This document shows positions 1,937 through 55,431 of a stretch of DNA of 64,000 nucleotides, in pieces. The notes beneath the pieces were generated by a model. That model worked only from the letters and a program-made list of their open reading frames with translations, searched no databases and had not been told where the DNA came from. The stretch lies in contig SHUG01000002.1 of NCBI GenBank assembly GCA_009694735.1, forward strand, positions 6,533 through 70,532. The letters run 5' to 3'. The stretch's first letter is position 1. The number at the start of each line of letters is the position of its first letter. A program made the position numbers and the translations under genes. The stretch comes from Acidobacteriota bacterium. Lineage in GTDB: Bacteria > Acidobacteriota > Vicinamibacteria > Vicinamibacterales > UBA2999.

Positions 1937-3952
1937 CTACTGTAACTTCTTCCGCTCATCCAATAGGTATGCCCGCAGGGCCGCGACGGCGGCCTTGTCG
2001 AGTTCCGCGAAGCGCGGCATGCCGCGTTCCACCAGCGATCCGTCCAGGATCTTCTCCAGGCCCGAGTAGACACCGGCCGATGACCGTCGCAGATCCGGCA
2101 GGACGGTAGCGCCGCCGTGGCAACGGACGCAGTAGGTATTGAAGATCTTGCCGCCCGCCGTGATGTCCTCGGGCTTCGCGTTGCTGGCGATCGCGGTCAC
2201 CGTGCGTGGTCGCGGCCGCGATGGCAGCGAGGCCGTGCCGCCCAGTGCGAACGTCAGCAAGCGGCCGTAACTGCGCGCCTTCTTCGGGAACGCGCCACCC
2301 CAGCCGGCCATGACCGAGACGTATTGCTTGCCGTCGATCATGTACGTGATCGGCGGCGCGACGATGCCGGTCGTCGCCCACGACGACCAGAGCTGTTGAC
2401 CGGTGGCCGCGTTGTAGGCGATGAAGTCGCCGGCCGCAGTGCCTTGAAAGACCAGGTTGCCGGCGGTGGCCAGCGTTCCGCCATTCCAGTAGGCGCCGTA
2501 CTCAGCTGTCCATCGCGGCTTGCGAGCAATCGGATCCCACGCCAGCAACCGGCCCTTATAGGGAATGTCGTAGCGGTCGACATTGCGGCCGGTGGGCGCC
2601 AGGCCGAGGTTGTATTCGAGCGGCTTGTATTCAAAGCCTTCCTGCTTCTCGTAGTAGCGCCCGTTGTCCTGGGCGGGAATGTAGACGAGGCCGGTCTTCG
2701 GGCTGAACGACATCGCCTGCCAGTTGTGCCCGCCGAGCGGACCCGGGCGGATGTAAGTGCCCTTGTCGGCGTAATCGGCGCCTGGCACCTCCACCGGCCG
2801 GCCCGTCTTCATGTCGACGTGCGACGCCCAGTTCACCGTCACATACGGATCGGCGGACAACAGCTCGCCAGTCGCGCGATCCAGCACGTAGAAGAACCCG
2901 TTCTTCGGCGCCTGCATGATCACTTTGCGCTGCCGTCCGCCGATCTGCAGGTCGGCCAGCATCATCGGCTGCACCGCGGTGTAGTCCCAGGTGTCGCCTG
3001 GCACCGTCTGGTAGTGCCAGACCAGCTCGCCGTTGTCGGGATTGATGGCGAGGATCGACGCCAAGTACAAGTTATCGCCGCCGCCCGGGCTCCGCAGGTG
3101 ACGGTTCCAGGTGGCGCCGTTGCCGGTGCCGACGTAGAGCAGGTTGATCTCGGGGTCGTAGACGATCGAATCCCAGACCGTGCCGCCGCCGCCGAACTTC
3201 CACCAGTCGTTGCCCTTCCACGTCGGCAGCGCCCGGTCGAGCGCCTTGTTCTCCTGTGGCTTCGACGGATCGCCAGGCACGGTGTAGAAGCGCCACGCGA
3301 GCTTGCCGGTCTCGGCGTCGTACGCAGAGACGTAGCCGCGCACGCCGTACTCGGCGCCGCCGTTACCGATGATCACCTTGCCCTTCGCAATCCGCGGTGC
3401 GCCGGTGCTGGTATACGCCTGCTTCTGATCGACCGTCGTCACCGACCACGACGGCTTGCCGCTCTTGGCGTCGATCGCGATCAAGCGCCCATCGAGAGCG
3501 CCAAGATACACGCGGCCCTTGTAGAACGCCGCGCCGCGGTTGACGACATCACAGCACGCGAGTTGGTCGTACTTGCGATGCACCTCGGGGTCGAACTTCC
3601 ACAGTTGCTGTCCGGTCCTGGCATCGACGGCATAGACGACGCTCCACGAGGCCGTGGTGTACATGATGCCGTCGATGACGAGCGGAGTCGCCTCGAGGCC
3701 GCGGTCGGTCGCCGTCTCGAACGACCACGCCAGCCCGAGCTTGGCGGCGTTGGCGTCGTTGATCTGATCCAGCGGACTGAAGCGTTGCTCGTAGTAATCG
3801 CGCCCGTAGGAGAGCCAATCTCCCGGGCGAGATTCCACGCTCGCCAGCGCCCGGTCGTCGACTGGCAGGGGAGCCTGCGCCGGTTGCGCTGAGACGAGCG
3901 CCACCAAGCCAAGCAGGAGAGCTGCGACGCCTCCGATAAATCGGCGGATCAT
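1937..3952 (-). CDS. PQQ-dependent quinohemoprotein alcohol dehydrogenase (C-terminal cytochrome c domain)
   Basis: Signal peptide and a beta-propeller with repeated W motifs. It has the adjacent Cys-Cys ring motif (ACCDVVNRG) typical of PQQ ADHs and a C-terminal CVRCH heme c site. Confidence 0.9.
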
Positions 3953-3960
3953 GGTGAACC

Positions 3961-5130
3961 TCAGCGCTTCAAGCGCGGGATGAACTTCGTGATGCCCTGG
4001 ATGGGGCCGACTTCGCCGCCGAACACGTTGCCTTGGGCATCAACCGCGACGCCTTCGCCCATCGAGCCGTAGCCGCCCATGCCCGAGGCCTGCTTCGAGA
4101 CATGCTCGGGAACGAAGTACCACACCTCGCCGGTGCGGGCGCTGCCGATACGCAGCCCCTTGCGCCAGCCCGGGTTGTAGTTGTCATCGGACTCGGAGTC
4201 GATCGCATACAGCGTGTCGTTACGATCGATGTCGAGACCGCTGATGCGGCTGAACTGATACCAGGTATCGAGGTGCTTGCCGTCCTGGTCGAAGATCTGG
4301 ATGCGGCGGTTGCCGCGATCGGCGACGAACAGGCGCCCTTTGGAATCCATGGCCAGCGAGTGCGGTCCGCGGAACTGGCTCGGTCCGTAGCCGTACGAGC
4401 CGAAGGTCTTGATGAACTTGCCGTCGGCCGAGAACTTCGAGATGCGGCCAATCGCGCCGGGGCCGTCCTGGTCGAGGAACTGCGCGCCGTGCGCCTCGGC
4501 CACGAAGATGCTGCCGTCGGGCGCAATCAGCACATCGTTCGGCTCGCTGAACTTCGTCGGCGGGTCGCCGGCCTCTCCAGGCGTGCCGAGCACCAGCAAG
4601 ACTTTGCCCTGCGGGCTGAACTTGGTGACCGTGTGGCCCTTGCCCCTGGCGTCGGGAAACTGTTTCAGCTCGGCGGCCGTGGCCGAGCGCGCGTCCACCA
4701 CCCACACGTTGCCTTGCTGGTCGACGTCCATGCCGTGCGGCCAGAGGATGACGCCCGCGCCGAAGCTCTGGACGACCTTGCCGGTGGGATCGAGTTTGAC
4801 GATTGGGTTCACATTGGAGCCCGCGCAGGAATTGGCGCCGCAGCGATCGCCGGCCCAGATGTGCTTGCCGTCGGGATCGACGCTGATCGCGCTGACTGAC
4901 CCCCACTTGCGTCCATCAGGCAGCGTGCCGAAGTTGCGCACGGTCTCGTAGGGGTTCGGGAGATTGTTGATGGGCGTGACCTTGGCGTGTTCGGGCGGAC
5001 CGGACGCGCCGCGCGGCGGCGCGGCGGGGACCGGCGGCGCTTGCGGCGCCTGGCCCATCAGGCTGACGCTGACAAGGGCCAGCAGTGCGGTGCTGAGCAG
5101 GGCGGCGGAACGGCGGCGAGTCGTGGTCAT
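3961..5130 (-). CDS. NHL-repeat beta-propeller protein (secreted)
   Basis: The internal ATG at 5130 gives the signal peptide [20 protein letters not shown]. Repeated NHL-like blades are visible (e.g. [17 protein letters not shown]). The upstream part of the 445-aa ORF looks non-coding. Confidence 0.75.
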
Positions 5131-9107: not shown

Positions 9108-10244
9108 CTACTCGTCGTCTTCGCCGTCTTCGTCGTGGTGGGTTTCTTCGGCGATCGACACCCGCGCGAACACCGTCTCGCGAATCTCCGGCGGCGCCAA
9201 TTCGTAGGCGATGGCCTCGAGGTCGGCCGGGATCGGCGCCATGAACTCCATCCGCTCCTTGGTCCGCGGGTGGGTGATGACGAGCCGCTCCGCGTGCAGG
9301 AACGGGCGGGCCAGCCGGGTCACCGCCTTCAGTGGATGGGGCACGCGCCGGTGTACGCCGCCGTAGAGCGCGTCGCCGACAATAGGATGGCCGATCGCGC
9401 TCAGGTGGACCCGGATTTGGTGGGTGCGGCCGGTGTGAATAGCCACCCGCAACAAGGTGACACCCTCCAGGTCGCGCGCCCACGTCACGCGGGTGATGGC
9501 GTCGCGCGATCGGCTGGCGCGCGTCGACATCTTCACGCGGTTCTTGGGGTCGCGGCCAATCCGGGCGTTGATGCGCTTGCGCTGCTGCACCAGGCCCCAC
9601 GCCAGCGCCACGTATTCCTTCTCGACTTCGCGATCGTGAAACTGCCGCGTCAGCTCGCGGTGTGCGTCGTCATTCTTGGCCACCACCATCACGCCCGAGG
9701 TTCCCTTGTCGAGCCGATGCACGATGCCCGGGCGAATCTCGCCGCCGATGCCGCTCAGATCCTTGATGTGATGCAGCAGCGCATTGACCAGCGTGCCAGA
9801 CGGGTTGCCCGCGGCCGGATGCACCACCATGCCCGCCGGCTTGTTGACGACGACGATGTCGACATCGTCGTAGAGGATCTCGATGGGCAGGTCTTCGGCT
9901 TGGGCGGCCGTCGCCGTGGGCGCCGGCAGCACCACCGAGATCACGTCGCCGTCGCGGATGTCGCTGTTGGACTTGGCGTCCTGGTAGCGCGAATGCGTGA
10001 CGTGACCGGTTTCGATCAGCCGCTGGATCTGGGACCGCGAGTAGTCGGCGATCTCACCGGCGAGAAATCGGTCGAGACGATCGCCGCGGTTGTCCTCGTT
10101 GGCCGTGAAATGCACGGTCGGCAGCGACGCCCGTGCATCAGGGATCGGGGATCGGGGATCGGGGATCGGGGATCCGGAATCGGGGACTTTCTTCCTGCGA
10201 CCCTTGCTCCGGTCTCTCGTCCCGGGCCCTTTACCCTGGCTCAT
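9108..10244 (-). CDS. rluD: RluA-family 23S rRNA pseudouridine synthase (RluD-like, S4 domain)
   Basis: HRLDKGTSGVMVVAK catalytic motif and an S4-like N-terminus (DRLDRFLAGEI). The ATG at 10244 overlaps the lgt stop (ATGA). An alternative GTG start lies at 10115, downstream of the heptamer array. Confidence 0.85.
   Translation of the reverse strand: MSQGKGPGTRDRSKGRRKKVPDSGSPIPDPRSPIPDARASLPTVHFTANEDNRGDRLDRFLAGEIADYSRSQIQRLIETGHVTHSRYQDAKSNSDIRDGDVISVVLPAPTATAAQAEDLPIEILYDDVDIVVVNKPAGMVVHPAAGNPSGTLVNALLHHIKDLSGIGGEIRPGIVHRLDKGTSGVMVVAKNDDAHRELTRQFHDREVEKEYVALAWGLVQQRKRINARIGRDPKNRVKMSTRASRSRDAITRVTWARDLEGVTLLRVAIHTGRTHQIRVHLSAIGHPIVGDALYGGVHRRVPHPLKAVTRLARPFLHAERLVITHPRTKERMEFMAPIPADLEAIAYELAPPEIRETVFARVSIAEETHHDEDGEDDE
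10137..10185. repeat. heptanucleotide tandem array, 7 units (ATCAGGG, ATCGGGG x4, ATCCGGA, ATCGGGG)
   Basis: Read directly from the sequence. It lies between the lgt stop and the conserved RluD core. Confidence 0.95.
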
Positions 10245-14469: not shown

Positions 14470-14492
14470 AGCGTCTCTGTATTGTAGTGTGA

Positions 14493-14524
14493 GGGCTTGG
14501 GGCTTGAGACTTGGGGCTTGGGGG
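14493..14524. repeat. heptanucleotide array GGGCTTG (GGGCTTG x2, AGACTTG, GGGCTTG, GGGG…)
   Basis: Read directly from the sequence. It lies in the ileS / M16 peptidase divergent intergenic region. Confidence 0.9.
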
Positions 14525-15852
14525 AAGGCGTGGCGATTCGCGAAACGGTCCTGGATAACGGCTTGAAGGTGCTCGTGCAGGAGGTTCACACCGCCCCGCT
14601 GGCGTCGGTGTGGTGCTGGTACCGCGTGGGGTCGAAGGACGAAACGCCCGGCGTCACCGGCGTCTCTCACTGGGTCGAGCACATGAACTTCAAGGGCACC
14701 CGGAACATTCCCCGGGACCAGGTGAAGGGCATCATCGAGAAGTTCGGTGGCAGCTGGAACGGCTACACCTGGATTGACCAGACGACCTATCTCGAAACGG
14801 CGTCGAAGGACGCCCTCGACCGCATGCTGTTCATCGAGGCCGAGCGCATGGACGCCTGCCTCTACGACCCGGCCGACTGTGAGTCGGAGCGGACGGTGAT
14901 CATCTCGGAGCTGCAAGGCGGCGAGAACGACCCCGAGCAACTGCTCGACACCGAGGTGACCGCTGCCGCCTTCAAGGTGCACCCGTATCACCACCCGACC
15001 ATCGGCTGGTTGTCGGACCTGCAGACCATGACGCGCGAGGACCTTTACGGCCACTATCGCCGGTTCTACGTCCCCGCCAACGCCACGATCGTCGTGGTCG
15101 GCGACGTCGAGACCGATGATGTGGTGAAGCGGGTGTCAGCGCAGTTTGGCGGCATTGCCTCGGGCGCGCGCAAGGCGGCCGTGCGCCAGGTGGAGCCCGA
15201 GCAGCAGGCCGAGCGTCGCGTGGTGCTGCGCAAAGAAGGCACCGCCGCCTACTGGAAGGCCGTGTTTCACGCGCCGGCGTTTGCGGACGAAGCCTTTTTC
15301 CCGCTGCTGGTGGCCGACGCCGTGCTCAACGGCGCCGCGGGCCTGAACATCTGGTCCGGGGGCGGCGTGTCGCGGCCACAGCGCAGCGCGCGGTTGTACC
15401 GGACGCTGGTGGATGGCGGTCTTGCCTCGAGCGTGAGCGGCGGATTGATGCCGACGGAGCATCCCTACCTCTATTCGCTCAGCGTTAGCGTGGCCGAAGG
15501 CGGTTCCCTCGCGGCCGTCGAGGACGCCGTGCTGAAGGAGGTGGCGCGTCTGCGACACGACGGCATCACCCCGGCGGAGTTGACCAAGGTCAACGCGCAG
15601 CTACGGGCGCGGTTTGTCTATGACGGCGACAGCGTGACCGACATCGCGCACCAGTTGGGCTATTTCGAAACGATCGGATCGTGGCGGAACTATCACGATC
15701 TGCGTGCCCGGCTCGAGGCGGTGACGGCCGAGGCGGTGCACGCCGCCGCCGTGAAGTACTTGACCCCTGCGAACCGGACCATCGGTTGGTTTGAACCGCA
15801 AGCCGGGATCGGGGATCCGGGATCCGGGATCCGGACAGGGTCATCGAAGTGA
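14497..15852 (+). CDS. M16 (pitrilysin) family zinc peptidase, catalytic subunit
   Basis: Inverted zinc motif HWVEH followed by NFKGT. The TTG start at 14497 lies inside the GGGCTTG array. A GTG at 14530 (VAIRETVLDNGLKVL) is an equally plausible start. Confidence 0.88.
   Translation: MGLETWGLGEGVAIRETVLDNGLKVLVQEVHTAPLASVWCWYRVGSKDETPGVTGVSHWVEHMNFKGTRNIPRDQVKGIIEKFGGSWNGYTWIDQTTYLETASKDALDRMLFIEAERMDACLYDPADCESERTVIISELQGGENDPEQLLDTEVTAAAFKVHPYHHPTIGWLSDLQTMTREDLYGHYRRFYVPANATIVVVGDVETDDVVKRVSAQFGGIASGARKAAVRQVEPEQQAERRVVLRKEGTAAYWKAVFHAPAFADEAFFPLLVADAVLNGAAGLNIWSGGGVSRPQRSARLYRTLVDGGLASSVSGGLMPTEHPYLYSLSVSVAEGGSLAAVEDAVLKEVARLRHDGITPAELTKVNAQLRARFVYDGDSVTDIAHQLGYFETIGSWRNYHDLRARLEAVTAEAVHAAAVKYLTPANRTIGWFEPQAGIGDPGSGIRTGSSK
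15805..15839. repeat. heptanucleotide array (GGGATCG, GGGATCC x3, GGACAGG)
   Basis: Read directly from the sequence. It encodes the C-terminal tail (GIGDPGSGIRTG) of the first M16 gene, just before the GTGA junction with the second. Confidence 0.9.
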
Positions 15853-23171: not shown

Positions 23172-23227
23172 GGGATCAGGGATCGGGGATCAGGGATCCG
23201 GGACGGGAGATCGGGGACAGGGGATCT
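23172..23227. repeat. heptanucleotide array, 8 units (GGGATCA/GGGATCG/GGGATCC plus degenerate units)
   Basis: Read directly from the sequence. It fills most of the thiD-stop / moaE-start spacer. Confidence 0.9.
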
Positions 23228-29781: not shown

Positions 29782-30485
29782 CCGGGCCGCTGCTCGAAAT
29801 CAGCGGCCTGGTGAAGGACTACCAGGCGCTGCGGCCGCTCCGCATCAAGTCACTGACCCTCGTGCCTGGTGACCTCCTCGCCGTCAGTGGCCTCGATGCC
29901 GCGGCCGCCGAGACATTTGTGCACTTGGTGACCGGGGCGACGTTGCCCGACCACGGCGACATCGCGCTGTTCGGCCACAACACCAGGACCATCACCGATG
30001 GCGAGGCCTGGCTCAAGTCACTCGACGGGGTGGGGATGGTGACTGCTCGCGGCATCGTGATCGAGATGTTCACGGTGTTGCAGAACATCGCCCTGTCGTT
30101 CACGCTCGAGGTCGACCCGATCGATCCCGACGTCTTGCCCAAGGCCACCGCGCTGGCCCGGGAGGTCGGCCTGGACGATTCGAGCTTCGACGTGGCGGTC
30201 GGCCGCTCGTCTCCCGACGCGCACATGCGGATTCACCTGGCGCGTGCGCTGGCCCTGGGTCCGCGCATGTTGATCGCCGAGCATCCGTCGGCGAGCCTCC
30301 CGCGCGAGACGGTCGCTGCCTTTGGCGCCGACCTGGCCCGCCTGGCCCGCTCGCGCGGCCTCGCCTTGCTGGCGTTGACGGCCGATGACGAACTCGCCAA
30401 GGCGATCGGTGGCCAGCGGCTCGAACTGGTGGCCGCCAGCGGCGAACTGAGGCCGGTCGGATTTTTCAAGAAGATCTTCGGTTAA
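29778..30485 (+). CDS. ABC-transporter ATPase homolog with degenerate catalytic motifs
   Basis: The ABC-like fold is alignable by eye. Walker A is replaced by SGLDAAAAETF, the signature LSGGQ by RSSPDAH, and Walker B DE by EH (MLIAEHP). Confidence 0.7.
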   Translation: MTGPLLEISGLVKDYQALRPLRIKSLTLVPGDLLAVSGLDAAAAETFVHLVTGATLPDHGDIALFGHNTRTITDGEAWLKSLDGVGMVTARGIVIEMFTVLQNIALSFTLEVDPIDPDVLPKATALAREVGLDDSSFDVAVGRSSPDAHMRIHLARALALGPRMLIAEHPSASLPRETVAAFGADLARLARSRGLALLALTADDELAKAIGGQRLELVAASGELRPVGFFKKIFG

Positions 30486-30513
30486 CCCCGATCCCTGATC
30501 CCTGATCCCTGAT
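30486..30513. repeat. heptanucleotide array, C-rich strand up (CCCCGAT, CCCTGAT x3)
   Basis: Read directly from the sequence. It occupies the whole spacer between the TAA at 30483-30485 and the ATG at 30512. Confidence 0.9.
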
Positions 30514-31201
30514 GCCCCCCGCGCTCATTCTCTTTGACATCGACGGCACCTTGCTGCTCAGCGGCCGTGCCGGCCTGCGCGCCATGACGCGCGCCTTTGC
30601 CGCGACCTTCGGCATCGCCGACGGTTTCAAGGACCAGTCGTTCGGCGGCCGGACCGATTCGTTCCTCGTCTCGCAGGCGTTGCAGGCGGCCGGCCTGCCC
30701 GACACCGCGGAGCACCACGCGCGCTTCCGCCAGGCCTACGTGCCGCTCCTGGAGGAAGAGATTCAGCAGCCTGGCGCCGGCCACAAGGGGTTGATGCCGG
30801 GCGCCCGCGCGCTGGTCGAGGCCCTCGTCGATCACGACCACCTGCATGTTGCGTTACTGACCGGAAACTATCGCGCCGCGGCCGAGATCAAACTCCGGCA
30901 CTTCGAACTGTGGGACTTCTTCGAGTGGGGCGCTTTCAGCGACGATGCGGCGGACCGCAATGCGCTGGTGCCGATCGCGCGGCAGCGGGCGGAAACCTAC
31001 GATGTGCCACCCGAGGCGCTGGCCCGCGTGATCGTGATCGGCGACACACCGCACGACATCGAATGCGCCCGGGTCGCCGGCGCCCAGTCGATTGCGGTGG
31101 CGACCGGGGGCCACTCAGTCGAGGAGCTGCGCGCGGCCGGTGCCGACATCGTGCTGGCCGACTTGTCAGACACCGAAAGGGTCGTCGCGCTGCTGATATG
31201 A
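30512..31201 (+). CDS. HAD-superfamily hydrolase (phosphoglycolate phosphatase-like)
   Basis: Motif I LFDIDGTLL and motif IV GDTPHD. Confidence 0.85.
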   Translation: MPPALILFDIDGTLLLSGRAGLRAMTRAFAATFGIADGFKDQSFGGRTDSFLVSQALQAAGLPDTAEHHARFRQAYVPLLEEEIQQPGAGHKGLMPGARALVEALVDHDHLHVALLTGNYRAAAEIKLRHFELWDFFEWGAFSDDAADRNALVPIARQRAETYDVPPEALARVIVIGDTPHDIECARVAGAQSIAVATGGHSVEELRAAGADIVLADLSDTERVVALLI

Positions 31202-31208
31202 TTTGACC

Positions 31209-31304
31209 GGAAGTGAACGGGGCCCGGTGGCCCTCCCGGTCTTCAAAATCGGTCGCTGCCTCCTTGCGGGGCAGGCTGGGTTCGACTCCCAGGCGCTTCC
31301 GCCA
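31209..31304 (+). tRNA. selC: tRNA-Sec (anticodon UCA), CCA encoded
   Basis: GGAAG…CTTCCGCCA acceptor ends and a 6-bp D stem (GGGGCC/GGCCCT) with a 4-nt loop. Anticodon loop CTTCAAA, a long variable arm (CTGCC…GGCAG) and T arm CTGGG-TTCGACT-CCCAG. It closely parallels E. coli selC as I remember it. Confidence 0.9.
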
Positions 31305-31461
31305 TTCTCGCCCCAGCTCGATGGTCTATTGGACTCATCTCCAACTCGTTGCAAAAAAGCACTTATCGTCACAGTCGCACTTGGCGCGCTCTTGACACGT
31401 CGCGACGTCCGTACGAACGCTTTTGTAGCTACAAAAGTGGATCTTCTACCGTTCGGTCGCG

Positions 31462-32658
31462 ATGACCACGGCGCGAAAATACCCACCACAACGCACTACA
31501 CTGCTCGCGGCATTATTTGAGGGAGGTCTGCGTATCGAGCAGCGGAATGCGAATGCCATTCTGTATGCGCGGACGTTTCTTTCCGGGAAACCCCTTGGGA
31601 ACAGTACGGGTGAGATCACGATCGGCGCAGCGAAAACGGCAGCGACGAAGTGGCGTCTCGATCTCTTGGCACAACAACGACTCGGCATTGCGATCCACGG
31701 CGAGACGTTCGAGGTTGCGGCACGGGCATTTCTGACCGATCAAGATCACATCAAAGCAGTGTCTGATGGGCAACGCAACAACCATCATTCAAAGTGGCGC
31801 TTGTTACAGCCGCATCTCACGGGTATTCGACTCACAGCGATCGATCTCAGTTGGCTCGAACAGCTGCGCAATCGACGGTCGCGTGATCTGAACAGGTCTG
31901 GGGCAGCGATCTCGTCGTCCACACTCAAGAAAGACTTCATTGTCATTCGTCTGGTCTTACGGCATGCGCTGGAACGGACAAAAACGCTGGCATCGGTACC
32001 GACCTTTCCTTCGTTTGCTGAACGCAAATGGAAGATCCACGCGCGACCACGTCGGTTCTTGACCGCAGCTGAATACGCGGTACTGCAGCAGACGGCTCTG
32101 ACGCGCATCAATAATCCCGCGATTACGGATCGGCAACGCTCGACGCGGCAGGTGTTGTTCTGGTTTATGGAACTGTGTGTTGGTGGCTGTCTGCGCGTGG
32201 ATGAAGCACGCTCGTTACGGTTTCGTGACTGTGTACTCTCGACGGTCATGGTTGGGACAACGGCTCGGGCGGTCTTGTTGATGAAAGTCCTGGGCAAACA
32301 TTCCCTGAATGGAGATGATCGGGAAGAGGCGTTCGGTCTTGCAGGTGCAGTTTCGGCATTCACGGCACTCCCGAAACGTCGACCGCAGGCTCAGGCAGAT
32401 GACCTGTTGTTTCCATCGCTGCATCGGCGCCAGTTTCGCGAACTGCTCGAGGCGGCGCAGTTGCGAGTCACGGCAACGGGTGACACGCGCAATATGAAGT
32501 CGCTGCGGTCGACAGGCATTTGTCTGTGACTGAACGATGGGCCAAAACAGCTCGACTATCGGGCGATCGCGAAATATGCACGGACATCTCCGACCATGAT
32601 CGCAGCGTTCTATGAGCAAACGCACGCAACGGCATTATTGGGGACATTGCTGCGGTAA
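31462..32658 (+). pseudogene. tyrosine recombinase/phage-type integrase with an in-frame TGA at 32527-32529
   Basis: Box I Arg is in GGCLRVDEARSL. The ORF stops at …KSLRSTGICL*. The same frame then continues LNDGPKQLDYRAIAKYARTSPTMIAAFYEQ…, which holds the expected C-terminal catalytic Tyr region, up to the TAA at 32656-32658. Confidence 0.8.
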
Positions 32659-32845
32659 CGATCGTCTGGGGTCGTGGTCACGTCGTCCGTCATGCCTCTA
32701 GCGAATGACCAGTACCACGCACTGTTCATTGTCACCAGGAGCGCGGAGGACGGATCCGTCCCGAGTCCTGCGTTACTCAAGAGGATCGCGCAGGCACGTC
32801 AGGATCGTGCCGGCAACGCCATTCTGACAGTCACGTGCACCCGGA

Positions 32846-33331
32846 TTACGGTGCGGAGCGACACCCGCTGAAATCCAGGATCCGCGCATACTGCGTCGGC
32901 GGCACGCCCTGCGTGCAGCCGTCACTGGTGACGTTCTTCCGCGTCCCGGTCGGCACTTGTCCGCCGCTACAGGTCAGCGTCGTCCACTGGGTATAGCTGA
33001 AACTGTCCTGTCCGCACGAGAACTGGCTCACGGAGTTCTCGCCAGAACGCCCCGGCGACGAGAAACATTGCGCAGAATCGTAATGGAGTGGAAACTCGGT
33101 CGTGGCGTTCGGCGTGCCACTACACGTCGCGTCCTGCCAGAAGCCGACGGTGATGTAGCGAGCCGGTCCCGTGGGTAGCGCCGGACCGACTGGCGTCGGC
33201 GAGGATGACAGCGTCGATACGGGTGCACTCGGCGCCGTTGGTGCGGAGGAAGTGCTGGTCCCGGCGCCGCACCCCGCTGTCACCACGCACGCCACCATCA
33301 CGACGAGGGTTCCGCCAAGCAGCATTGACAT
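32846..33331 (-). CDS. hypothetical lipoprotein, Cys-rich (island cargo)
   Basis: Signal peptide with lipobox (VVTAGC), a Pro/Ser/Thr linker, and then a domain with six further Cys. Confidence 0.5.
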   Translation of the reverse strand: MSMLLGGTLVVMVACVVTAGCGAGTSTSSAPTAPSAPVSTLSSSPTPVGPALPTGPARYITVGFWQDATCSGTPNATTEFPLHYDSAQCFSSPGRSGENSVSQFSCGQDSFSYTQWTTLTCSGGQVPTGTRKNVTSDGCTQGVPPTQYARILDFSGCRSAP

Positions 33332-33495
33332 CGCCAGAATCCGTCCCGAGTCCTGTAGAAATTAAAAAATGGCGTAACTTCCTGCTGAATCTCAAACAGC
33401 AGCTCGCCGGTTCAGACCATTATGGTTACCGAGGCGTGCGATGTCGATGACTTTCCTGACACTGCCCACGATCCTACCGAACACTCCAGACGATC

Positions 33496-33822
33496 ATGTC
33501 GGCAGTCGCACAGTTTGAACGGGAGAAGATCGGTGAGCGGACGAGGGACGTGAAGCGACAGCGCTTAGCAGAGGGCTATTTCGTCGGTGGTGCTGTGAAG
33601 TGGGGTCTCACGGTCGTGGATGGCAAGTTCGTGGCAGATGTGAAGAAAACGGCATTGATCGCGCAGATGAAGGCGTGGCGCAGTCAAGGGAAGTCGCTGC
33701 GTGACATCGTGGCGCGGGTGGTGGAGCGCGGCGAACCGATCTCGGTCGATACGGTTCGAACGCTCACGAATGACGTGGCGACAGCGGAGATGCATCGGCG
33801 AGGGCGACGGAAAAAGTCGTGA
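33496..33822 (+). pseudogene. serine recombinase (resolvase/invertase) C-terminal fragment
   Basis: It starts at the conserved …AVAQFEREKIGERTR block. The catalytic N-terminal domain is missing, and stops lie upstream in the same frame. Confidence 0.65.
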
Positions 33823-34128
33823 CGGCGTGCGCGGTTCACGTTGCGAGGACAGCGTTTCTTGACACCGAAGTTGACACCACGTTTTCGGCAACACACTTGC
33901 GACATGTCGCAACTGGTTGCTGAGTACTTAGGTGACTGACGTTTGCCTGAATGCACCCATCGCGGGCGATCCTACCTGCCGCAGCTCGAATGGCTTCAGC
34001 GCCTGGTCGTCAGTCAGACCGGCTTCGGCCTTCGGCCTCGCCTAAATCGGCTCGACTCCCAGGCATGGGCTCGGCTCGCCTTCGCTCGGGTCACACTCCC
34101 ACGCCCCAAGCGCCACACCCCACGCCCA

Positions 34129-48475: not shown

Positions 48476-50590
48476 TTAGAACGTGATGCCGGCGCTGACG
48501 CCGAACGTGCGTGGGCGGCCATTCTCGCCGATGAACCCCGATGGTGCAAACCCCGGAAAGGGAATGGCGATAGGCACGTAGATCGTGTCGAAGGCGTTGC
48601 GGATCCAGGCTTCGCCGAACAACCGCTTGCCGCGCGCGCCGGCGCGAAAGTTCACCAGCCCGTAGGCGTCCTGCCGGGCGGTGTTGGCTTCGTCGTACTC
48701 AAACGCGCCATACCTGACCGCTTCGCCTCGGCCGTAAATGGTCACGGCTGAGGTGAGGGCGCGCGACAACTGCGCACCAACCACCGCCGTGTAGTCCGGG
48801 GTGTACGGCAGTTTCTTGTCGGCCACATTCACGCCGCCCGACACGGTGCCCTCGGCAAAGCGCGCGTGCGTGTAGCCGAAGGACGCGAACAGGTCGAGCG
48901 AGGCATGCGGGCGGGCGGCAAGTTCCACTTCCACGCCACGGCTGCGGGCGCCGCCGACGTTCGCGATGTAGAACTGACCCGGAACAAACGGATTCGGGAC
49001 ATTCAGCTGCAGGTCGTCCCACTCGATCGAAAACACCGCGGCGTTGGCCGAGATACGCCCGCCGGGGAGCGTGGACTTCAATCCGCCTTCGACGTGCCAG
49101 GCATGCTCTTCGCCGTAGGCCTCGCTGCCGGGCAGCGCGGCAGGATTGAAGCCGCCGGCCTTGAAGCCACGGCTGGCCGAAGCGTAGACGGAACTGTTGG
49201 CATTCGGGCGGAAGGCCAACGCGAATTGCGGTGAGAGATCCGAGAAGGTGGCGTCAGCGGCCACCGGGTTTGCCGGGGCGATGGCCGGTGAGAAGAACGT
49301 ATTCAGCCTTGCATCGCTCTGCTCGCGATCGAAACGCAGGCCTGCCGTCAGGTCGACCTTCTCGTTGAAGCTGACAGTGCCGTGGCCGAACACGCCGACG
49401 CCGGCGCTGTCGATCGCCGCCTCGGGCGAGGTCTGTGCCACCGGGAAGGGAATCTGCCGCGAGAGCACGAACGCGCCGAGTGAATTGACGGCCAGCTGGT
49501 CGTAGTTCTGCTTGAAATACGCGACACCACCCTGCCACTTGAGCGTCACGGCGTCAGCGAGCTGCCACGGCGCGTTGTCAGGGGACGCCAGGCGAACCTC
49601 CTGGGTGAACTGAAAATCCTCTTCGCGGTTGCTCCGCGTGGCAAGCGCCAGCGGCGTGTAATCGAGGTCGGTTTGGTCTTCGGTGTTCCACTTCACGAAA
49701 CCGGTGGTGCTTTCAATCGACACCCGTTCACCGTTGCCGCGCAGGTTCACGGTGGTGGCGTTGATGTCGCGGTTGGTGAACCCTTCGAAGTTACGTGACA
49801 CCATGAACGGCGTCGCGCGGATCGCGTTTAGATCGCCGAGCGCGTAATCGCCGTCGCGATTGCGTTCGTGCGAGTAGATCACCCGCGCCTGCCAGTTCGC
49901 ATTTGGCGTGAGCAGCAGCTGCGCCTTGGCAAACGTGCCGTCGCGGAAGTCGAGGTCGTGCCCAGTGATGCGATTCACCGTGTAGCCCTCGCGCTCTTGC
50001 CGTCCCGCCGCGAAGCCGATCGCGGCCCGGTCGCCGAGCGGGCCCGAGACGTTGCCGCGGACTTCCTTCGAGCCGAAGTCGCCGAACGGCGCCACGATCG
50101 ACCCGGTCCATTTCGTCGTCGACGGCCGCGTGCTGGTGACGTTGACGATGCCGCCGAGCGTGTTGCGGCCGAAGAGCGGGCTTTGCGGCCCGCGCACGAA
50201 CTCGATCTGATCCACATCCAGCAACTCGACGTTGGACGAGTTGCTGTTCAACTGCGGCACGCCGTCGAGGTAGGTCGTGATGGCAGGATTGCCCGGGCTC
50301 GAGCCAATTCCCCGGAAGCGCGCGTTACTTACCTTGCGGGCCGTGAACTCGGTGAACACGGTGTTCGGCGCGAACATGGCCGCATCGGTGATCACGCGCA
50401 AGCCGGCATTCGCAATGGTGTCGTCGGTGACCGCGGTGATGCTCGCCGGAACGGCCTTCACGTCCGCCGCCTCTTTCTGCGCGGTGACGATCACCGTTGG
50501 CAAAATCACGGTGGGCGGCTGGCTCGATTGCGCGAACGACGCCGTCGGGGCGAGCAGGGCGACCAAGACTGCAAAACAAAGTCTGAGCAT
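48476..50590 (-). CDS. TonB-dependent receptor
   Basis: Signal peptide and a plug domain (…LFGRNTLGGIVNV…). A beta-barrel ends in the aromatic …GITF. The ATG at 50590 is preferred, and the track's GTG at 50605 is an alternative. Confidence 0.9.
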   Translation of the reverse strand: MLRLCFAVLVALLAPTASFAQSSQPPTVILPTVIVTAQKEAADVKAVPASITAVTDDTIANAGLRVITDAAMFAPNTVFTEFTARKVSNARFRGIGSSPGNPAITTYLDGVPQLNSNSSNVELLDVDQIEFVRGPQSPLFGRNTLGGIVNVTSTRPSTTKWTGSIVAPFGDFGSKEVRGNVSGPLGDRAAIGFAAGRQEREGYTVNRITGHDLDFRDGTFAKAQLLLTPNANWQARVIYSHERNRDGDYALGDLNAIRATPFMVSRNFEGFTNRDINATTVNLRGNGERVSIESTTGFVKWNTEDQTDLDYTPLALATRSNREEDFQFTQEVRLASPDNAPWQLADAVTLKWQGGVAYFKQNYDQLAVNSLGAFVLSRQIPFPVAQTSPEAAIDSAGVGVFGHGTVSFNEKVDLTAGLRFDREQSDARLNTFFSPAIAPANPVAADATFSDLSPQFALAFRPNANSSVYASASRGFKAGGFNPAALPGSEAYGEEHAWHVEGGLKSTLPGGRISANAAVFSIEWDDLQLNVPNPFVPGQFYIANVGGARSRGVEVELAARPHASLDLFASFGYTHARFAEGTVSGGVNVADKKLPYTPDYTAVVGAQLSRALTSAVTIYGRGEAVRYGAFEYDEANTARQDAYGLVNFRAGARGKRLFGEAWIRNAFDTIYVPIAIPFPGFAPSGFIGENGRPRTFGVSAGITF

Positions 50591-50634
50591 CTCGTAATTA
50601 TGCACGACGGCGGATGCGCTGGAACCGACCCCCC

Positions 50635-50732
50635 GGATCAGGGATCAGGGATCAGGGATCAGGGATCAGGGATCAGGGATCAGGGATCAGGGATCAGGGA
50701 TCAGGGATCAGGGATCAGGGATCAGGGATCAG
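50635..50732. repeat. heptanucleotide array, 14 perfect tandem GGATCAG units
   Basis: Counted unit by unit from the sequence. It is followed by the degenerate unit GGACGCC. Confidence 0.97.
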
Positions 50733-50832
50733 GGACGCCACGACATTGTCTGCCCAGGCGCCAGACACCCGGATTACGAACGTGGGGCCGTGCGAGAACT
50801 GGCCGACACCGTGTAAACGCTCGCCGGGCTAG

Positions 50833-50859
50833 GTCCGGCTGAAGCCGGACGCCACATTC
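50833..50859. repeat. REP-like hairpin GTCCGGC-TGAA-GCCGGAC plus conserved tail (second copy)
   Basis: 25/27 identity to 22384-22410. Confidence 0.8.
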
Positions 50860-50908
50860 AAGCCTCGTCAAGCCCCAAGCCCCAGGCCCCAGGCCCCAAG
50901 CCTCGTCA
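50859..50908. repeat. heptanucleotide array AGCCCCA x2 / GGCCCCA x2 flanked by direct repeats CAAGCCTCGTCA
   Basis: Read directly from the sequence. It is the reverse-complement family of GGGCTTG and abuts the TGA stop at 50906-50908. Confidence 0.85.
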
Positions 50909-52006
50909 GTCGTGCGGCTTTTCGACCGCCACCAACTCCGGTTGTCTTATGACGGGCGGCAGATCCTCGGCCTGGCTGCGAACCGGCAAGCGCTCCGGCC
51001 CGAAGTGCGGTAACGACACCGGTGCACCTCGACGCGCCGACTGATACAACGCATCCACCACGCGCACGTCCCGGCACCCTTCCTCCGCCGATGGTTCAGG
51101 GTCTTTGCCGTTCAGCACGCAATCCGAAAAGTAGACCAGTTCCGCTGCGAACTGATCGCGGCGTCGGCCCTTCTTCGTCTTCACGTCGTCGCCGACCGTC
51201 AGGGTGTAGCCGAGGGCCTCGGCGTAGTCGTATGCGGGCTCAGCGTGAATGTTGCCTTCGGTTCCGACTACGCGCAGATCCGACACGCCATTGGCAGCGA
51301 AGCTGGTCGTGAACGTCGCCAGGCGGTCGCCGTCAAACCGCATCATGCCCGACGTCATCTCATCAATCTCCGGCAGATCGGCGCGCGCGCCATCGATTGA
51401 GTAGGCAAAGACCTCGGTGGGCTCGGCGCGGAACAGCAGGCGGGCCGCATTGATACAGTACACACCCAGGTCAAAAAGCGTCCCGCCGCCCAGCTCACGC
51501 TGGGTGCGAATGCCATTTGGCTTGGCGTGCATCGAGAACGAGGACGTGAAGTAGCGCGGCTCGCCGATCTTCCCGGCGCGCACCATGTCGACGATTTCAA
51601 GGAATAGCGGCTCGAAGTGCAGCCGGCACGCCGTCATCAGGCGCACATTGGCAGCTGCTGCCGCCTCAATCATCCTCGTGCATTCCGCTGCTGTGACCGC
51701 CAGTGGCTTCTCACAGAGCACGTGCACGCCAGCGCGGGCCGCCCGCACGGCGTAGTCCGCGTGCTCGGAATTCGGCGTGCAGATGTAAACCGCGTCCACT
51801 TCCTTCAGGCACCGCTCGTAGTTGTCGTAGCTCGAGCGAACTGGAACGCGGTAGCGATCGCCCAGTTTATTGAGCTTCTCGTCGCTGCCGCTCACAATGG
51901 CGTGAAGTGCGGAGTTGCGCTTGGCGTGCGCGAACGCCGGTAGCACCGCCGCTTGCGCAATGTGGCCGAGCCCGACCACGGCATAACGAACCTTCGACAA
52001 AGCCAT
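50906..52006 (-). CDS. Gfo/Idh/MocA family NAD(P)-dependent oxidoreductase
   Basis: N-terminal Rossmann motif VGLGHIAQ and an EKP motif (LCEKPLA). Confidence 0.9.
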   Translation of the reverse strand: MALSKVRYAVVGLGHIAQAAVLPAFAHAKRNSALHAIVSGSDEKLNKLGDRYRVPVRSSYDNYERCLKEVDAVYICTPNSEHADYAVRAARAGVHVLCEKPLAVTAAECTRMIEAAAAANVRLMTACRLHFEPLFLEIVDMVRAGKIGEPRYFTSSFSMHAKPNGIRTQRELGGGTLFDLGVYCINAARLLFRAEPTEVFAYSIDGARADLPEIDEMTSGMMRFDGDRLATFTTSFAANGVSDLRVVGTEGNIHAEPAYDYAEALGYTLTVGDDVKTKKGRRRDQFAAELVYFSDCVLNGKDPEPSAEEGCRDVRVVDALYQSARRGAPVSLPHFGPERLPVRSQAEDLPPVIRQPELVAVEKPHD

Positions 52007-53524: not shown

Positions 53525-55366
53525 TTACTGCACGCCAAACGCCAGCAACACGTTGCCGGCCATCTGGCCGAACGAGCCATAGCCTGAGTTGGTGAACACC
53601 ATGCCGTTGACGATGGTGGCGCCGGGGCCGTTGATGGAGCCGCCGCGCGCCTTGATGCCGTTGACGGTCTCGAAGTCGCGCGCCGTGGCGAACTCCCACA
53701 GCACCTTGCCGTCGGCGGCACTATAGGCACGCATCATCCCGTCGGTCGCGCCGGAGAACACCACGCCGGGGATCAGGCTGGCCGCCGCCGACTGCGCCGG
53801 GATGCACTTCATGGTTTGATCCGGGCAGGTGGCAATGGGCGGCGCCCACCACTCGCGCTCGCCGGTCGCCAGGCGAATGGCCGCGAGTCCACCGGCCGCC
53901 TTCATCCCGAGCAGGCCATCGGCATTCGGGTAGTAGACGAGGCGATCGTCAGCCGCGCCACCCCACTCGATGCCGCCGAGTGCCGTGCCCTGGCCGACGC
54001 GATGCTGCCACACCACCGAGCCATCATCGGGGTTGAGGCCCCAGGCCAGGCCTGATTTCTGGCCGACGGCGAGAATGCGGCGGCCGCCGGCGAGCGTGCG
54101 AAGGATGGGAGAAGTGCCCACCGCGAAGTCGGGACCGGTTTCTTGCGGGCACGTTTCTGATTTGGCGTTCGGACCGCAACCGATGACATAGGCGTCGTTC
54201 GGTGTCAGCTGGCGCGTCCATAATCGCTTGCCCGACGCGAGATCGAGCGCCATCACGGCGTCGGTCGTGTTGACGGCCGGGTAGGTGTAGCCGTTACTGG
54301 TGGACAGGTAGATTCGCCCGCGCACCGGATCGATGGTGGGCGCCGACCACACGGCGGCGCCCGCGGGTCCCCACAACTGCGTGCCGGTGGACGTTTTCCG
54401 CATCGGCACGGCGGCTTCGGAGATGGTGAACGACTGCCAGCGCTGTTCGCCGGTGCTGGCGTCGTACGCGATCACGCTGCCGCGAAACGAACAGCAGGGA
54501 TAGGCCGGGTTGCCACCCAAGGCTTCTTCGATCGACGACACCGGCACGTAGAGACGGCCGTCATGAAACGCGGGGGCGCCGGTAATGCGCGCGACCGGAT
54601 GGGGGTCGGCATGCTTCGACCACAGGAGAGCGGCGCTCTCGGCATCGATCGCGTAAACGTTCGCCCTGACATCACCAAAGAACACCGCGAACCGCGAGCC
54701 GCCCGTCTTGACCGGCGCGACCGTGATTGCCGTGCGCACGGCCGCCTTCGCTTGATACGACCAATAGACGCAGCCGCTCGCCGCATCGAGTGAATAGACG
54801 AAGCCGTTATCGGAGCCGACGTAGATGCGGCCGCCCATCACGGTCGGCTGTCCAAAAGCCTGCCGGCCTTCAGGGAAGCCAAACGCCCATTTCAGCGTCA
54901 GCGTCGGCACGGTGGCCGCGGTCAGGCCCGCTGCGGCTGCCGGCTGAAAGCGGGTGTTGGATTTGTCAGCGCCCCAGCCATTCCAGCCTGGTCCGTCGAG
55001 GGGATTGCCCAGCGGCTTCGCGGCACACTGATTCTTCATCGTTGATGCAGGTCCGGCCGTTGCCGTGCCGAATGATCGTCCGGACACATACTCGGCGATC
55101 GCACGCATTTGCGCCTCGGTCAGGCCAGACGCCATCGGCGCCATGCTGCCGGTGGTGATCGCCGAGAAAATAGCCTCCGGCGCCCGTCCCTGCAGTTGCG
55201 CGCGAGCGGGCGCCCGGCTGCCGGGTTCTGGATTCACGTGGCAGCTCGCGCACTTGTCCGTGAAGGGCAGCAGCCCAGTGACACCGAAGCCCTGGGCCGC
55301 CGCGTTCGAGGCGCCGGCGATCACCACAACACAGAGGAGGACGAGTGACACGCGCATGCCTCGCAT
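53525..55366 (-). CDS. PQQ-repeat beta-propeller quinohemoprotein with N-terminal cytochrome c domain (polyvinyl-alcohol-dehydrogenase-like architecture)
   Basis: Signal peptide and a CASCH heme site near the N-terminus, followed by PQQ-type propeller repeats. An alternative ATG lies at 55357. Confidence 0.8.
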   Translation of the reverse strand: MRGMRVSLVLLCVVVIAGASNAAAQGFGVTGLLPFTDKCASCHVNPEPGSRAPARAQLQGRAPEAIFSAITTGSMAPMASGLTEAQMRAIAEYVSGRSFGTATAGPASTMKNQCAAKPLGNPLDGPGWNGWGADKSNTRFQPAAAAGLTAATVPTLTLKWAFGFPEGRQAFGQPTVMGGRIYVGSDNGFVYSLDAASGCVYWSYQAKAAVRTAITVAPVKTGGSRFAVFFGDVRANVYAIDAESAALLWSKHADPHPVARITGAPAFHDGRLYVPVSSIEEALGGNPAYPCCSFRGSVIAYDASTGEQRWQSFTISEAAVPMRKTSTGTQLWGPAGAAVWSAPTIDPVRGRIYLSTSNGYTYPAVNTTDAVMALDLASGKRLWTRQLTPNDAYVIGCGPNAKSETCPQETGPDFAVGTSPILRTLAGGRRILAVGQKSGLAWGLNPDDGSVVWQHRVGQGTALGGIEWGGAADDRLVYYPNADGLLGMKAAGGLAAIRLATGEREWWAPPIATCPDQTMKCIPAQSAAASLIPGVVFSGATDGMMRAYSAADGKVLWEFATARDFETVNGIKARGGSINGPGATIVNGMVFTNSGYGSFGQMAGNVLLAFGVQ

Positions 55367-55375
55367 CCTACCTCA

Positions 55376-55431
55376 GGGATCGGGGATCGGGGATCGGGGA
55401 TCGGGGATCGGGGATCGGGGATCGGGGAGGG
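55376..55431. repeat. heptanucleotide array, 7 perfect GGGATCG units plus GGGAGGG
   Basis: Counted from the sequence. It lies 10 nt from the PQQ gene ATG and directly abuts the blaI fragment. Confidence 0.95.

Follow-up and report, generated by a model that had tools for sequence, protein, structure and literature searches.

The window, a 64,000-nucleotide stretch of a contig from a member of the Acidobacteriota (Vicinamibacterales), carries on its minus strand a TonB-dependent receptor gene followed by a YeeE/Sulf_transp membrane protein gene and a Na+/H+ exchanger family gene (Table 1). This receptor–YeeE–antiporter gene string, proposed in a preliminary description of the sequence, is borne out by the Pfam domains. 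The receptor ORF opens with a signal-peptide-like N-terminus (MLRLCFAVLVALLAPTASFAQ). Between its start codon and the next co-directional gene upstream, a GFO/IDH/MocA oxidoreductase, lie a core promoter block, a long array of GGGATCA heptamers, the relic of a small secreted-protein gene, a short hairpin, and a second heptamer array. The second array is G-rich on the coding strand and begins 1 nt past the oxidoreductase stop codon. The hairpin has no T-tract and a terminator scan found no terminator there; neither full sigma-70 consensus promoters nor intrinsic terminators were found in 50400–51100. Rfam returned only a tRNA-Sec in the window, with no match in the receptor upstream region.

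Table 1. Features of the receptor locus and heptamer arrays elsewhere in the window (64,000 nt)
Feature	Coordinates	Strand	Basis and remarks
Na+/H+ exchanger family protein (Na_H_Exchanger), 408 aa	45963..47189	-	Pfam PF00999; gene call
YeeE/Sulf_transp membrane protein, 407 aa	47191..48414	-	Pfam PF04143 8e-68; synteny kept in relatives
TonB-dependent receptor, 704 aa	48476..50590	-	Pfam Plug 4.7e-15, barrel 5.1e-42
Receptor start codon ATG	50588..50590	-	6-nt gap after -10 box; ATG position conserved
Predicted -10 box CATAAT	50597..50602	-	nATAAT-N5-8-ATG in 68/102 orthologous loci
Upstream part of core promoter block	50603..50634	-	homologous to relatives (local alignments)
Heptamer array (GGGATCA)x14.4	50635..50735	+	TRF; sequence; canonical G4 motif
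Decayed relic of small secreted-protein gene	50736..50832	+	translation; tblastn E 6e-6; intact homologues in L166, L167, L169, L003
7-bp hairpin GTCCGGC-TGAA-GCCGGAC	50833..50850	.	DNA fold -8 kcal/mol; between convergent gene ends
Second heptamer array, ~5 units GGGCTTG/GGGGCCT	50866..50904	-	TRF; sequence
GFO/IDH/MocA oxidoreductase, upstream co-directional gene	50906..52006	-	Pfam
(GGGGATC)x7	10132..10186	+	TRF; antisense, ~25 nt upstream of pseudouridine synthase gene
(GGGCTTG)x4.4	14493..14523	+	TRF; 62-nt spacer of divergent ileS-like/M16 peptidase-like genes
(CCGGGAT)x4.6	15794..15834	+	TRF; in C-terminal tail codons of M16 peptidase-like gene
(GGGATCA/GGGGATC)x7	23172..23222	+	TRF; antisense, thiD stop to moaE start
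(GGGATCA)x4	30484..30516	-	G-rich on minus strand; fills entire 26-nt spacer of two co-directional + genes
(GCGTGGG)x4.3	34098..34127	-	G-rich on coding strand, 1 nt past DUF218 gene stop
Perfect (GGGGATC)x7.6	55373..55431	+	divergent spacer, abuts TAGGAT-N7-ATG of PQQ dehydrogenase gene

The array at the receptor promoter is a tract of period 7 with 100% matches and a Tandem Repeats Finder (TRF) score of 202, the highest in the 64-kb window; the runner-up (55376–55428, 7.6 perfect copies) scores 106. Its earlier characterization as the longest and most perfect array is therefore upheld, as are its 14 perfect units, although the perfect tract measures 101 nt and not the 98 nt first given. A chance origin of 14 perfect tandem copies is excluded. 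The perfection had been taken to argue for recent expansion, and we agree: the identity of all copies suggests such an expansion, and on the same ground length polymorphism and the stated copy number are presumed. The tract contains 15 G3 runs separated by 4-nt loops, a pattern of (G3N4)x15, and its G-rich (+) strand serves as template for the minus-strand genes on either side. As a hairpin or cruciform it offers only stacked 4-bp GATC pairings with an unfolded centroid (-9.4 and -6.8 kcal/mol), and this reading was rejected. The GATC contained in every unit gave no sign of a connection with Dam or restriction, its frequency outside the arrays being as expected (observed/expected = 0.99). No -35-like or -10-like hexamers were found within the array. 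The RNA CAGGGAUC presumably resembles the CsrA binding consensus.

Searches with the receptor, oxidoreductase, and YeeE sequences matched this organism in ERZ1305449, SRR31412735, and SRR12053440/41; the metagenome scan yielded no relative above 89% protein identity. The independent Logan assembly of SRR31412735 reproduces both array junctions: contig L001 opens with 22 nt of array and runs into the receptor promoter, and contig L002 runs from the upstream gene into 29 nt of array, where it ends. The SRR12053440/41 contigs end within the receptor gene, short of the array. Because L001 and L002 both break inside the array, its exact copy number rests on the window assembly and one ENA contig, which has the same 315-nt gene spacing and may not be independent of the window.

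The breaks in both k-mer contigs, together with the unclear independence of the ENA contig (the only one besides the window to span the array), are what an assembly artefact would produce, with either a wrong copy number or a junction that is a collapse or chimera across identical repeats. Since both Logan contigs stop inside the array, the gene loss described below could itself be an assembly collapse between two identical arrays. Against an artefact, each unique junction is seen again in the independent assembly, decay of the adjacent small gene fits genuine gene loss at the locus, and no relative carries a second GGGATCA array at -45 of the promoter on the same strand. An artefact is thus regarded as improbable.

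The receptor promoter can be read directly from the minus strand, where CATAAT (50602–50597), the 6-nt TACGAG, and the ATG (50590–50588) follow one another; no Shine-Dalgarno sequence is evident before the ATG. The position of CATAAT and its 6-nt spacing to the ATG are as first described, and the gap between array and box measures 32 nt (50603–50634) where 33 nt had been given. This gap holds no convincing -35 hexamer, the best candidate being GTTCCA (3/6). The arrangement of nATAAT, 5–8 nt, and an in-frame ATG recurs in 68 of 102 orthologous receptor loci, in which flanking and further-upstream sequence has diverged, and it is kept in nearly all orthologous loci with an N-terminal identity of at least 66%. 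With a -10 hexamer of the TAnnnT class placed within 6–8 nt of the start codon, no Shine-Dalgarno sequence, and conservation in orthologues, the promoter has the features of a leaderless promoter of the sigma-70 type.

This footprint backs the earlier proposal of a -10 box serving a leaderless mRNA or one with a very short leader. The leaderless reading is well supported by sequence and conservation, and transcription is predicted to start at the A of the ATG or 1 nt before it. Counted back from a start at 50590, the array extends over about -45 to -145, in agreement with the -40 to -140 suggested before. Leaderless genes are predicted in all three Acidobacteria genomes surveyed, with a mean of 13.3% and a range of 9.7–19.4% (Zheng et al. 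2011, PMC3160421). As in TA-led leaderless genes, a TAnnnT-type -10 box lies ~10–12 nt before the start codon with no Shine-Dalgarno sequence (PMC3160421); the receptor differs from those genes in that its leaderless status is predicted from sequence plus conservation. The conserved nATAAT-N6-ATG footprint is a useful marker of leaderless receptor promoters in Vicinamibacterales.

Relatives indicate how the array came to lie beside this promoter. Their ancestral gene order is receptor, 407-aa protein, CrcB, PQQ-propeller, and small secreted-protein ORF, with the receptor divergently transcribed. In L003 and L169/L170, a shorter, imperfect array with the same units and orientation stands directly after the PQQ-propeller stop codon, in frame within the first codons of the small secreted-protein gene and ~3 kb from the receptor. 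Unit number at this site differs between related genomes, from zero (L004, L166, L167, and L168) through seven imperfect units (L003) and about eight (L169/L170, likewise imperfect) to the 14.4 perfect units of the window. The window has no 407-aa protein, CrcB, or propeller gene between the receptor and the array site, and no propeller homologue was found elsewhere in it; three propeller homologues (P0005–P0007, of five among the top matches) come from other samples.

The break points of homology agree with this picture. Local alignments of the receptor region with L003, L004, and L083 start at the ATG and stop precisely at window position 50635, and the second break falls at about 50738–50770. 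The array is therefore flush with receptor-promoter homology on one side and with the relic of the small gene on the other. What survives in the relic is the last part of its signal peptide (ATTLSAQAPD) and the C-terminus (TNVGPCENWPTPCKRSPG and stop); it has lost some 150 internal codons together with the signal peptide's hydrophobic core, and it is still in frame with the array. The same losses led to rejection of the + strand ORF at 50614–50832, with its GSGIRDQ repeats, as a functional gene. Among ~67 orthologous receptor promoters examined, none has a comparable array, and the nATAAT-N6-ATG core is present without it.

The array also belongs to a dispersed family. The window contains nine heptamer arrays of the form G3-4N3-4, eight of them outside ORFs, although 87% of the window is coding sequence (P = 8e-7); the sole intragenic one is at 15794..15834. 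All seven canonical G-quadruplex motifs of the window fall inside heptamer arrays (expected 2.9 +/- 1.8). The neighbours of the sister arrays are mostly housekeeping genes (ileS-like, rluD-type, moaE, thiD, HAD, M16 peptidase-like, and DUF218), the ileS-like and M16 peptidase-like names being taken from N-terminal sequences. In 851 kb of the clade, periods of 7 nt (34 arrays) and 8 nt (38) predominate, any other period reaching at most 11. The 34 heptamer arrays comprise ten with three units, 12 with four, and four with five, with a tail to 14 and a low end clipped by the detection threshold. GGGATCA is the commonest heptamer in the clade and occurs at non-orthologous sites in five other genomes. 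Of 33 arrays from the window and relatives, 23 have their nearest ORF 5' of the G strand (P = 0.035, uncorrected). The array at the receptor promoter follows this positional rule, with 44 nt to the receptor ATG (on the non-coding strand) and 170 nt to the other ORF.

In relatives, many arrays with units of 7 or 8 nt lack G-richness, which means that the clade's arrays cannot share quadruplex formation as a general property.

The closest known counterparts are the quadruplex-forming heptamer simple sequence repeats (SSRs), GGGNATC or GGGGA(C/T)T, of Xanthomonas campestris, X. axonopodis (pv. citri), and Nostoc PCC7120 (Rehm et al. 2015, PMC4692102). Each unit there combines a tract of at least three G with an ATC core; GGGATCA is a permuted variant of this design with ATC right after GGG, and the sister GGGGATC arrays at 10137 and 55376 fit GGGNATC exactly. 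The likeness extends to dispersal in strongly non-coding positions (here judged from one 64-kb window), to a nearer ORF on the 5' side of the G strand, and to length and sequence that differ between related genomes with no tie to surface genes. The SSRs usually have ~4 units with rare long perfect arrays, the longest in Xcc being a perfect array of 14 units, to which the present tract can be likened. The differences are the phylum (Acidobacteriota, Vicinamibacterales), the co-occurrence of GGGCTTG and GCGTGGG units here and of units without G-richness in relatives, and a reconstructed array history with a coding-region origin and a flanking deletion. Genome-wide intergenic tandem heptamers are also known from free-living Beggiatoaceae (TAACTGA direct repeats, PMC4679880) and from Cyanobacteria (the STRR heptamers of Calothrix, cited in PMC4692102); these differ in sequence and phylum, and TAACTGA has no G-tract. 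No report of quadruplex-type heptamer microsatellites in Acidobacteriota was found in the searchable literature, and the present arrays extend the class to soil and groundwater members of this phylum. The positional rules known from Proteobacteria and Cyanobacteria hold in a third phylum.

Taken together, the best explanation, with a probability of roughly 0.6, is that the tract is a slippage-expanded member of a dispersed family of intergenic G3-4N3-4 microsatellites, set beside an intact promoter by deletion and at most modulatory or insulating. The array would have grown to 14 identical units by replication slippage, and sequence loss 5' of its G strand would have left it at position -45 of a leaderless promoter that is intact and -35-poor, where it may now act as a length-unstable spacer. 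Up to three G-quadruplexes could fold; since any read-through from the oxidoreductase gene would use the G-rich strand as template, such folding might impede it. Because the array belongs to a dispersed G-rich family and was placed by a gene-loss deletion, it is probably not a dedicated, purpose-built switch of the receptor operon, and whatever influence it has on receptor expression should be small and secondary. Points against this explanation include that the receptor is a surface protein, a gene class in which contingency repeats are typical, and that non-conservation is no proof against a lineage-specific regulatory effect.

Long perfect microsatellites are expected to be highly mutable, and in some pathogens TonB-dependent receptors count among the classic contingency genes. 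Both facts speak for the role first suggested for the array, in which slippage would alter upstream promoter architecture and so tune or phase-vary receptor–YeeE–antiporter transcription. Such a mechanism would resemble that of the hmw1A (ATCTTTC)n repeats or of the repeats upstream of Neisseria meningitidis nadA. The array does lie at -45 to -145 of the promoter, and G4 motifs near Escherichia coli promoters can activate or repress according to position (summarised in PMC4692102). A heptamer precedent also exists: the Haemophilus influenzae hmw1A/hmw2A repeats form an array of at least ten units upstream of an outer-membrane or surface protein gene and are a working example of graded tuning by unit number (PMC12721329). 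The hmw repeats, however, are not G-rich and lie in the 5' UTR, where they act through an RNA hairpin cut by RNase III (PMC12721329); here the array precedes the conserved -10 box and, with a leaderless mRNA predicted, would not be part of the receptor transcript.

Other evidence also argues against such a role. The array is outside the conserved core promoter, beyond which nothing is conserved, so changes in unit number cannot alter -10/-35 geometry, spacing, or a 5' UTR. Contingency SSRs would be expected between the -35 and -10 boxes, on a regulator site, or in the leader, where unit number alters promoter geometry or mRNA structure, and this array ends at -45; they would also be expected preferentially at surface or host-interaction genes, and while the receptor itself is an outer-membrane protein, the sister arrays mostly adjoin housekeeping genes. 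Arrival of the array through deletion and its absence from the ~67 orthologous promoters point the same way, and Rehm et al. deemed phase variation unlikely for this repeat class (PMC4692102). A tuning or phase-variation element is accordingly unsupported and considered unlikely. A long repeat near a promoter need not be a phase-variation switch.

The array might instead be a selected polar structural element. Quadruplexes on the template strand, possibly with an i-motif on the C strand, would block oxidoreductase read-through or antisense transcription from the receptor gene and thereby insulate the leaderless promoter; without a Shine-Dalgarno sequence, the receptor ORF would be untranslatable from read-through transcripts. 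The 15 G3 tracts with 4-nt loops suit this role, related GGGAATC oligonucleotides form K+-dependent G4 in vitro (PMC4692102), and the strand and position rule holds in three phyla. There is also no intrinsic terminator between the oxidoreductase and receptor genes, and several sister arrays abut -10-like boxes of short-leader genes: that at 14493..14523 begins 6 nt from a TACAAT box, that at 23172..23222 begins 5 nt from a TATACT box, and that at 55373..55431 adjoins TAGGAT. On the other hand, folding is predicted, from the match to (G3N4)x15 and, as proxy, a G4-aware RNA fold, and termination is putative. One sister array takes up a whole co-directional spacer of 26 nt, which leaves no space for a separate promoter; a block there would do harm. 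Many arrays of the clade have no G3 tracts, and the orthologous promoters manage without an array. Selection for such an element therefore seems doubtful.

Upstream transcription could also be ended at the RNA level, if the read-through transcript (CUGAUCC)14 served as a Rho loading site. This RNA is C-rich and G-poor (43% C and 14% G over 101 nt), has regularly spaced C runs, and is only weakly self-structured, its predicted centroid being unfolded. The adjacent array (50866..50904), however, yields G-rich RNA. Moreover, Cyanobacteria, which are generally held to lack Rho, obey the same positional rule. Rho loading at the array is very improbable.

How the deletion came to end flush with the array may be considered separately. 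In Caenorhabditis elegans, deletions induced by G4 motifs extend 5' of the G strand. We put forward, as a tentative and rather unlikely possibility, that G-rich heptamer arrays are polar deletion generators: when replication stalls at quadruplexes, DNA 5' of the G strand would be lost as far as a selected element, such as an ORF end or a core promoter. If true, this would explain why arrays hug the ORF on the 5' side in Xanthomonas, in Nostoc, and here. The receptor locus would then be a case caught in the act, in which several genes have been lost and the deletion abuts the array at one end and position -45 of a conserved promoter at the other. In G4-induced deletions of dog-1/FANCJ mutants, one junction sits immediately at the G4 motif while the distance to the second varies (PMC4654259); the multi-kb loss that meets the array at the 5' end of its G strand can be likened to this. 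The dog-1/FANCJ setting is eukaryotic and helicase-deficient, with deletions of 50–300 bp and repair by polymerase theta, whereas the present case would be a presumed bacterial loss of ~3 kb in which the array survived.

Under the preferred explanation, a dispersed microsatellite brought to the promoter by deletion, the locus is a rare case in which an array's history can be reconstructed, from a start in a coding region through expansion to the disappearance of the genes beside it. The polar-deletion idea has a corollary for the relatives in which the array lies in frame in the first codons of the small secreted-protein gene: slippage by one unit (7 nt) would shift the frame and switch that gene off.

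The main array, the perfect heptamer tract upstream of the TonB-dependent receptor gene, is the top-scoring tandem repeat of the window (Tandem Repeats Finder: period 7, 14.4 copies, 100% matches, score 202), followed by 55376-55428 with 7.6 perfect copies. The preliminary description had counted 14 perfect units; the array is real, and that length is slightly short. Both unique array/flank junctions are reproduced in an independent Logan assembly (SRR31412735), and an ENA contig has identical 315-nt spacing across the array. The Logan contigs stop within it, L001 retaining 22 nt of the repeat and L002 29 nt; copy number therefore depends on one or two assemblies. Assembly collapse is conceivable, if unlikely. 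The receptor ORF comprises a signal-peptide-like N-terminus, Plug and TonB-dependent receptor barrel domains. Sulf_transp/YeeE and then Na_H_Exchanger genes lie downstream, as originally described, and a co-directional GFO/IDH/MocA oxidoreductase gene ends upstream at 50906.

Comparators were gathered by searching the YeeE protein against a genome collection and the receptor against metagenomes, giving Vicinamibacterales/Acidobacteriota MAGs and contigs that share the conserved receptor-YeeE pair (receptor identity 55-89%; none of the same strain). In the stacked upstream regions, nATAAT-N5-8-in-frame ATG, where nATAAT is CATAAT, TATAAT or GATAAT, occurs in 68 of 102 orthologous receptor loci, among them almost every locus whose N-terminal identity is 66% or higher. 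It is the one conserved element of these regions; everything farther upstream is divergent. They contain neither a consistent Shine-Dalgarno sequence nor a conserved -35 hexamer (the best candidate in the window, GTTCCA, matches 3/6). The footprint backs the earlier proposal of a -10 box and a leaderless message, the transcription start itself being predicted from sequence; with the start taken as 50590, the array would occupy about -45 to -145, in line with the promoter placement proposed. Leaderless genes were predicted in 3/3 Acidobacteria genomes of an earlier survey (PMC3160421). The region of the main array gave no Rfam match, consensus promoter or intrinsic terminator. Five loci from relatives (L003, L004, L005, L010 and L012) share a conserved GCTAGCCTACAACGAA block, roughly at -125 to -110 relative to the receptor start codon. 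Read along its other strand, the block gives TAGGCT some 10 nt ahead of the divergent gene's ATG and is probably the short-leader promoter of that gene. This block is deleted in the window.

The main array is one of nine heptamer arrays of at least four units in the window (units GGGATCA, GGGGATC, CCGGGAT, GGGCTTG and GCGTGGG). Eight of the nine lie outside ORFs, against ~87% coding in the window (P = 8e-7), and the window's seven canonical G-quadruplex motifs are all located within these arrays, versus 2.9 expected. The neighbours are pseudouridine synthase, ileS-like, two M16 peptidase-like, moaE, thiD, HAD hydrolase, DUF218, oxidoreductase, receptor and PQQ dehydrogenase genes, mostly housekeeping genes rather than contingency loci. 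Several arrays begin within a few bases of -10-like boxes of short-leader genes, on the upstream side.

Repeat arrays and associated features in the window and in loci from relatives
Feature	Position	Setting
Main array	50635-50735	minus-strand order: array, 32 nt, CATAAT (50602-50597), TACGAG, ATG (50590)
Companion array	50866-50904	G-rich on coding strand; begins 1 nt past oxidoreductase stop
(CCCTGAT)x4	30486-30511	whole 26-nt spacer of co-directional ABC-ATPase-like and HAD hydrolase genes; last unit is context of the ATG; no Shine-Dalgarno sequence or -10 box
Heptamer array	15794-15834	translated as C-terminal tail (ending AGIGDPGSGIRTGSSK, stop) of M16 peptidase-like gene; stops 15 nt ahead of overlapping GTG start of second M16-like gene
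(GGGCTTG)x4.4	within 14469-14529	half of ~62-nt spacer of divergent ileS-like/M16 peptidase-like genes; begins 6 nt from TACAAT box, stops 6 nt before GTG start
Perfect (GGGGATC)x7.6	55355-55431 region	adjoins TAGGAT-N7-ATG of cytochrome-c/PQQ dehydrogenase gene (alternative ATGs 55366 and 55357); spacer common to divergent BlaR1-M56/TonB_C gene
Orthologous arrays	L003 1040-1093; L169 ~4512-4570; L170 ~1713-1770	
8-nt array/inverted copy	L020 5220-5342; L022 5219-5254 and 9284-9318	
8-nt array/inverted copy	L021, L022	upstream of receptor
Near-perfect palindrome CTGTAACCATATGGTTACAG, candidate operator	L009 ~3600-3640; L015 ~3720-3760	upstream of receptor, adjoining divergent regulator-like gene; the window instead has a PadR gene after the antiporter gene

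Across 851 kb of related loci, arrays of periods 7 and 8 (34 and 38) outnumber those of any other period. The commonest heptamer, GGGATCA, turns up again in five other genomes at sites that are not orthologous; many array units are not G-rich. An array typically starts 1-10 nt past a stop codon, and for 23 of 33 arrays the closest ORF is the one 5' of the array as read along its G-rich strand (P = 0.035, uncorrected), or for ~27 of 33 once obvious gene-call errors are corrected by eye. The main array follows this rule on the non-coding strand, with 44 nt to the ATG versus 170 nt to the other ORF. In these respects the arrays agree with the GGGNATC/GGGGAYT repeats described in Xanthomonas and Nostoc, which are intergenic, reach 26 units (mode four), lie closer to the 5' ORF, differ between related species, have no tie to surface genes and can fold into G4 structures in vitro; their describers thought phase variation unlikely (PMC4692102). 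A literature search turned up no account of arrays like these in Acidobacteria; the main array is a known kind of repeat, now in a new phylum. Some relatives carry an 8-nt array and then its inverted copy directly past the receptor stop codon, an arrangement that would fold into a long hairpin and that resembles convergent repeat pairs reported in Xanthomonas.

The array is not conserved at the receptor promoter: it is absent from the other ~67 orthologous promoters, a few of which carry other, unrelated arrays of short period at different offsets. Relatives have the receptor gene divergent from a four-gene string (407-aa protein, CrcB, PQQ-propeller and a small secreted protein, 175-191 aa long), with a convergent oxidoreductase beyond it. 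In L003 and L169/L170, the small-gene ATG overlaps the propeller stop codon, and directly past both stands an imperfect array of ~7-8 GGGATCA/GGGGATC units, oriented as the main array and in frame in the first codons. This orthologous site is variable, with no array in L004 or L166-L168. Because a slip of one unit (7 nt) would shift the reading frame, the in-frame array is a candidate site for switching translation on and off. The window has no 407-aa, CrcB or propeller gene, and its small gene is only a relic (ATTLSAQAPD-TRITNVGPCENWPTPCKRSPG, stop) lacking the hydrophobic signal core and ~150 internal codons. Homology to relatives' receptor promoters begins at the ATG and stops exactly at 50635, the array's first base, and small-gene homology resumes at ~50738; the main array therefore sits flush within a gene-loss scar. 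The main deletion (~2.7 kb in L003 coordinates) is located 5' of the array as read along its G-rich strand. This flush, one-sided loss recalls the deletions that quadruplexes induce in C. elegans (PMC4654259); the likeness, no more than an analogy, suggests that the proximity of arrays to the 5' ORF has a mutational origin.

Slippage would have expanded a single unit type into 14 identical copies, and the deletion would have brought the array beside an intact leaderless promoter, where it may now act as an unstable spacer. The preliminary description proposed that copy number could tune or phase-vary receptor-YeeE-antiporter expression. This proposal found no support, short of strict refutation; a dedicated role of this kind is unlikely because unit changes cannot alter -10/-35 spacing, the leader or a conserved upstream site. 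Its closest working precedent, the hmw1A heptamer, works through a transcribed 5' UTR hairpin (PMC12721329), a feature not shared by the main array, which lies upstream of the predicted transcription start. The G-rich strand would be the template for any oxidoreductase read-through, with up to three quadruplexes possible, and an insulating G4 role is conceivable, if improbable. Watson-Crick self-structure of the array is weak, and GATC frequency is unremarkable.

Elsewhere in the window, a tRNA-Sec gene lies at 31209-31300 (Rfam, 61.9 bits). The GC3-based gene map is empty over the ~2.8 kb after it (31300-34100); the sole long ORF there (31462-32529, 355 aa) has no Pfam match, and the stretch may be the remnant of an inserted element. 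That the window carries both YeeE-family genes and tRNA-Sec may be a sign that selenium or sulfur is handled here.
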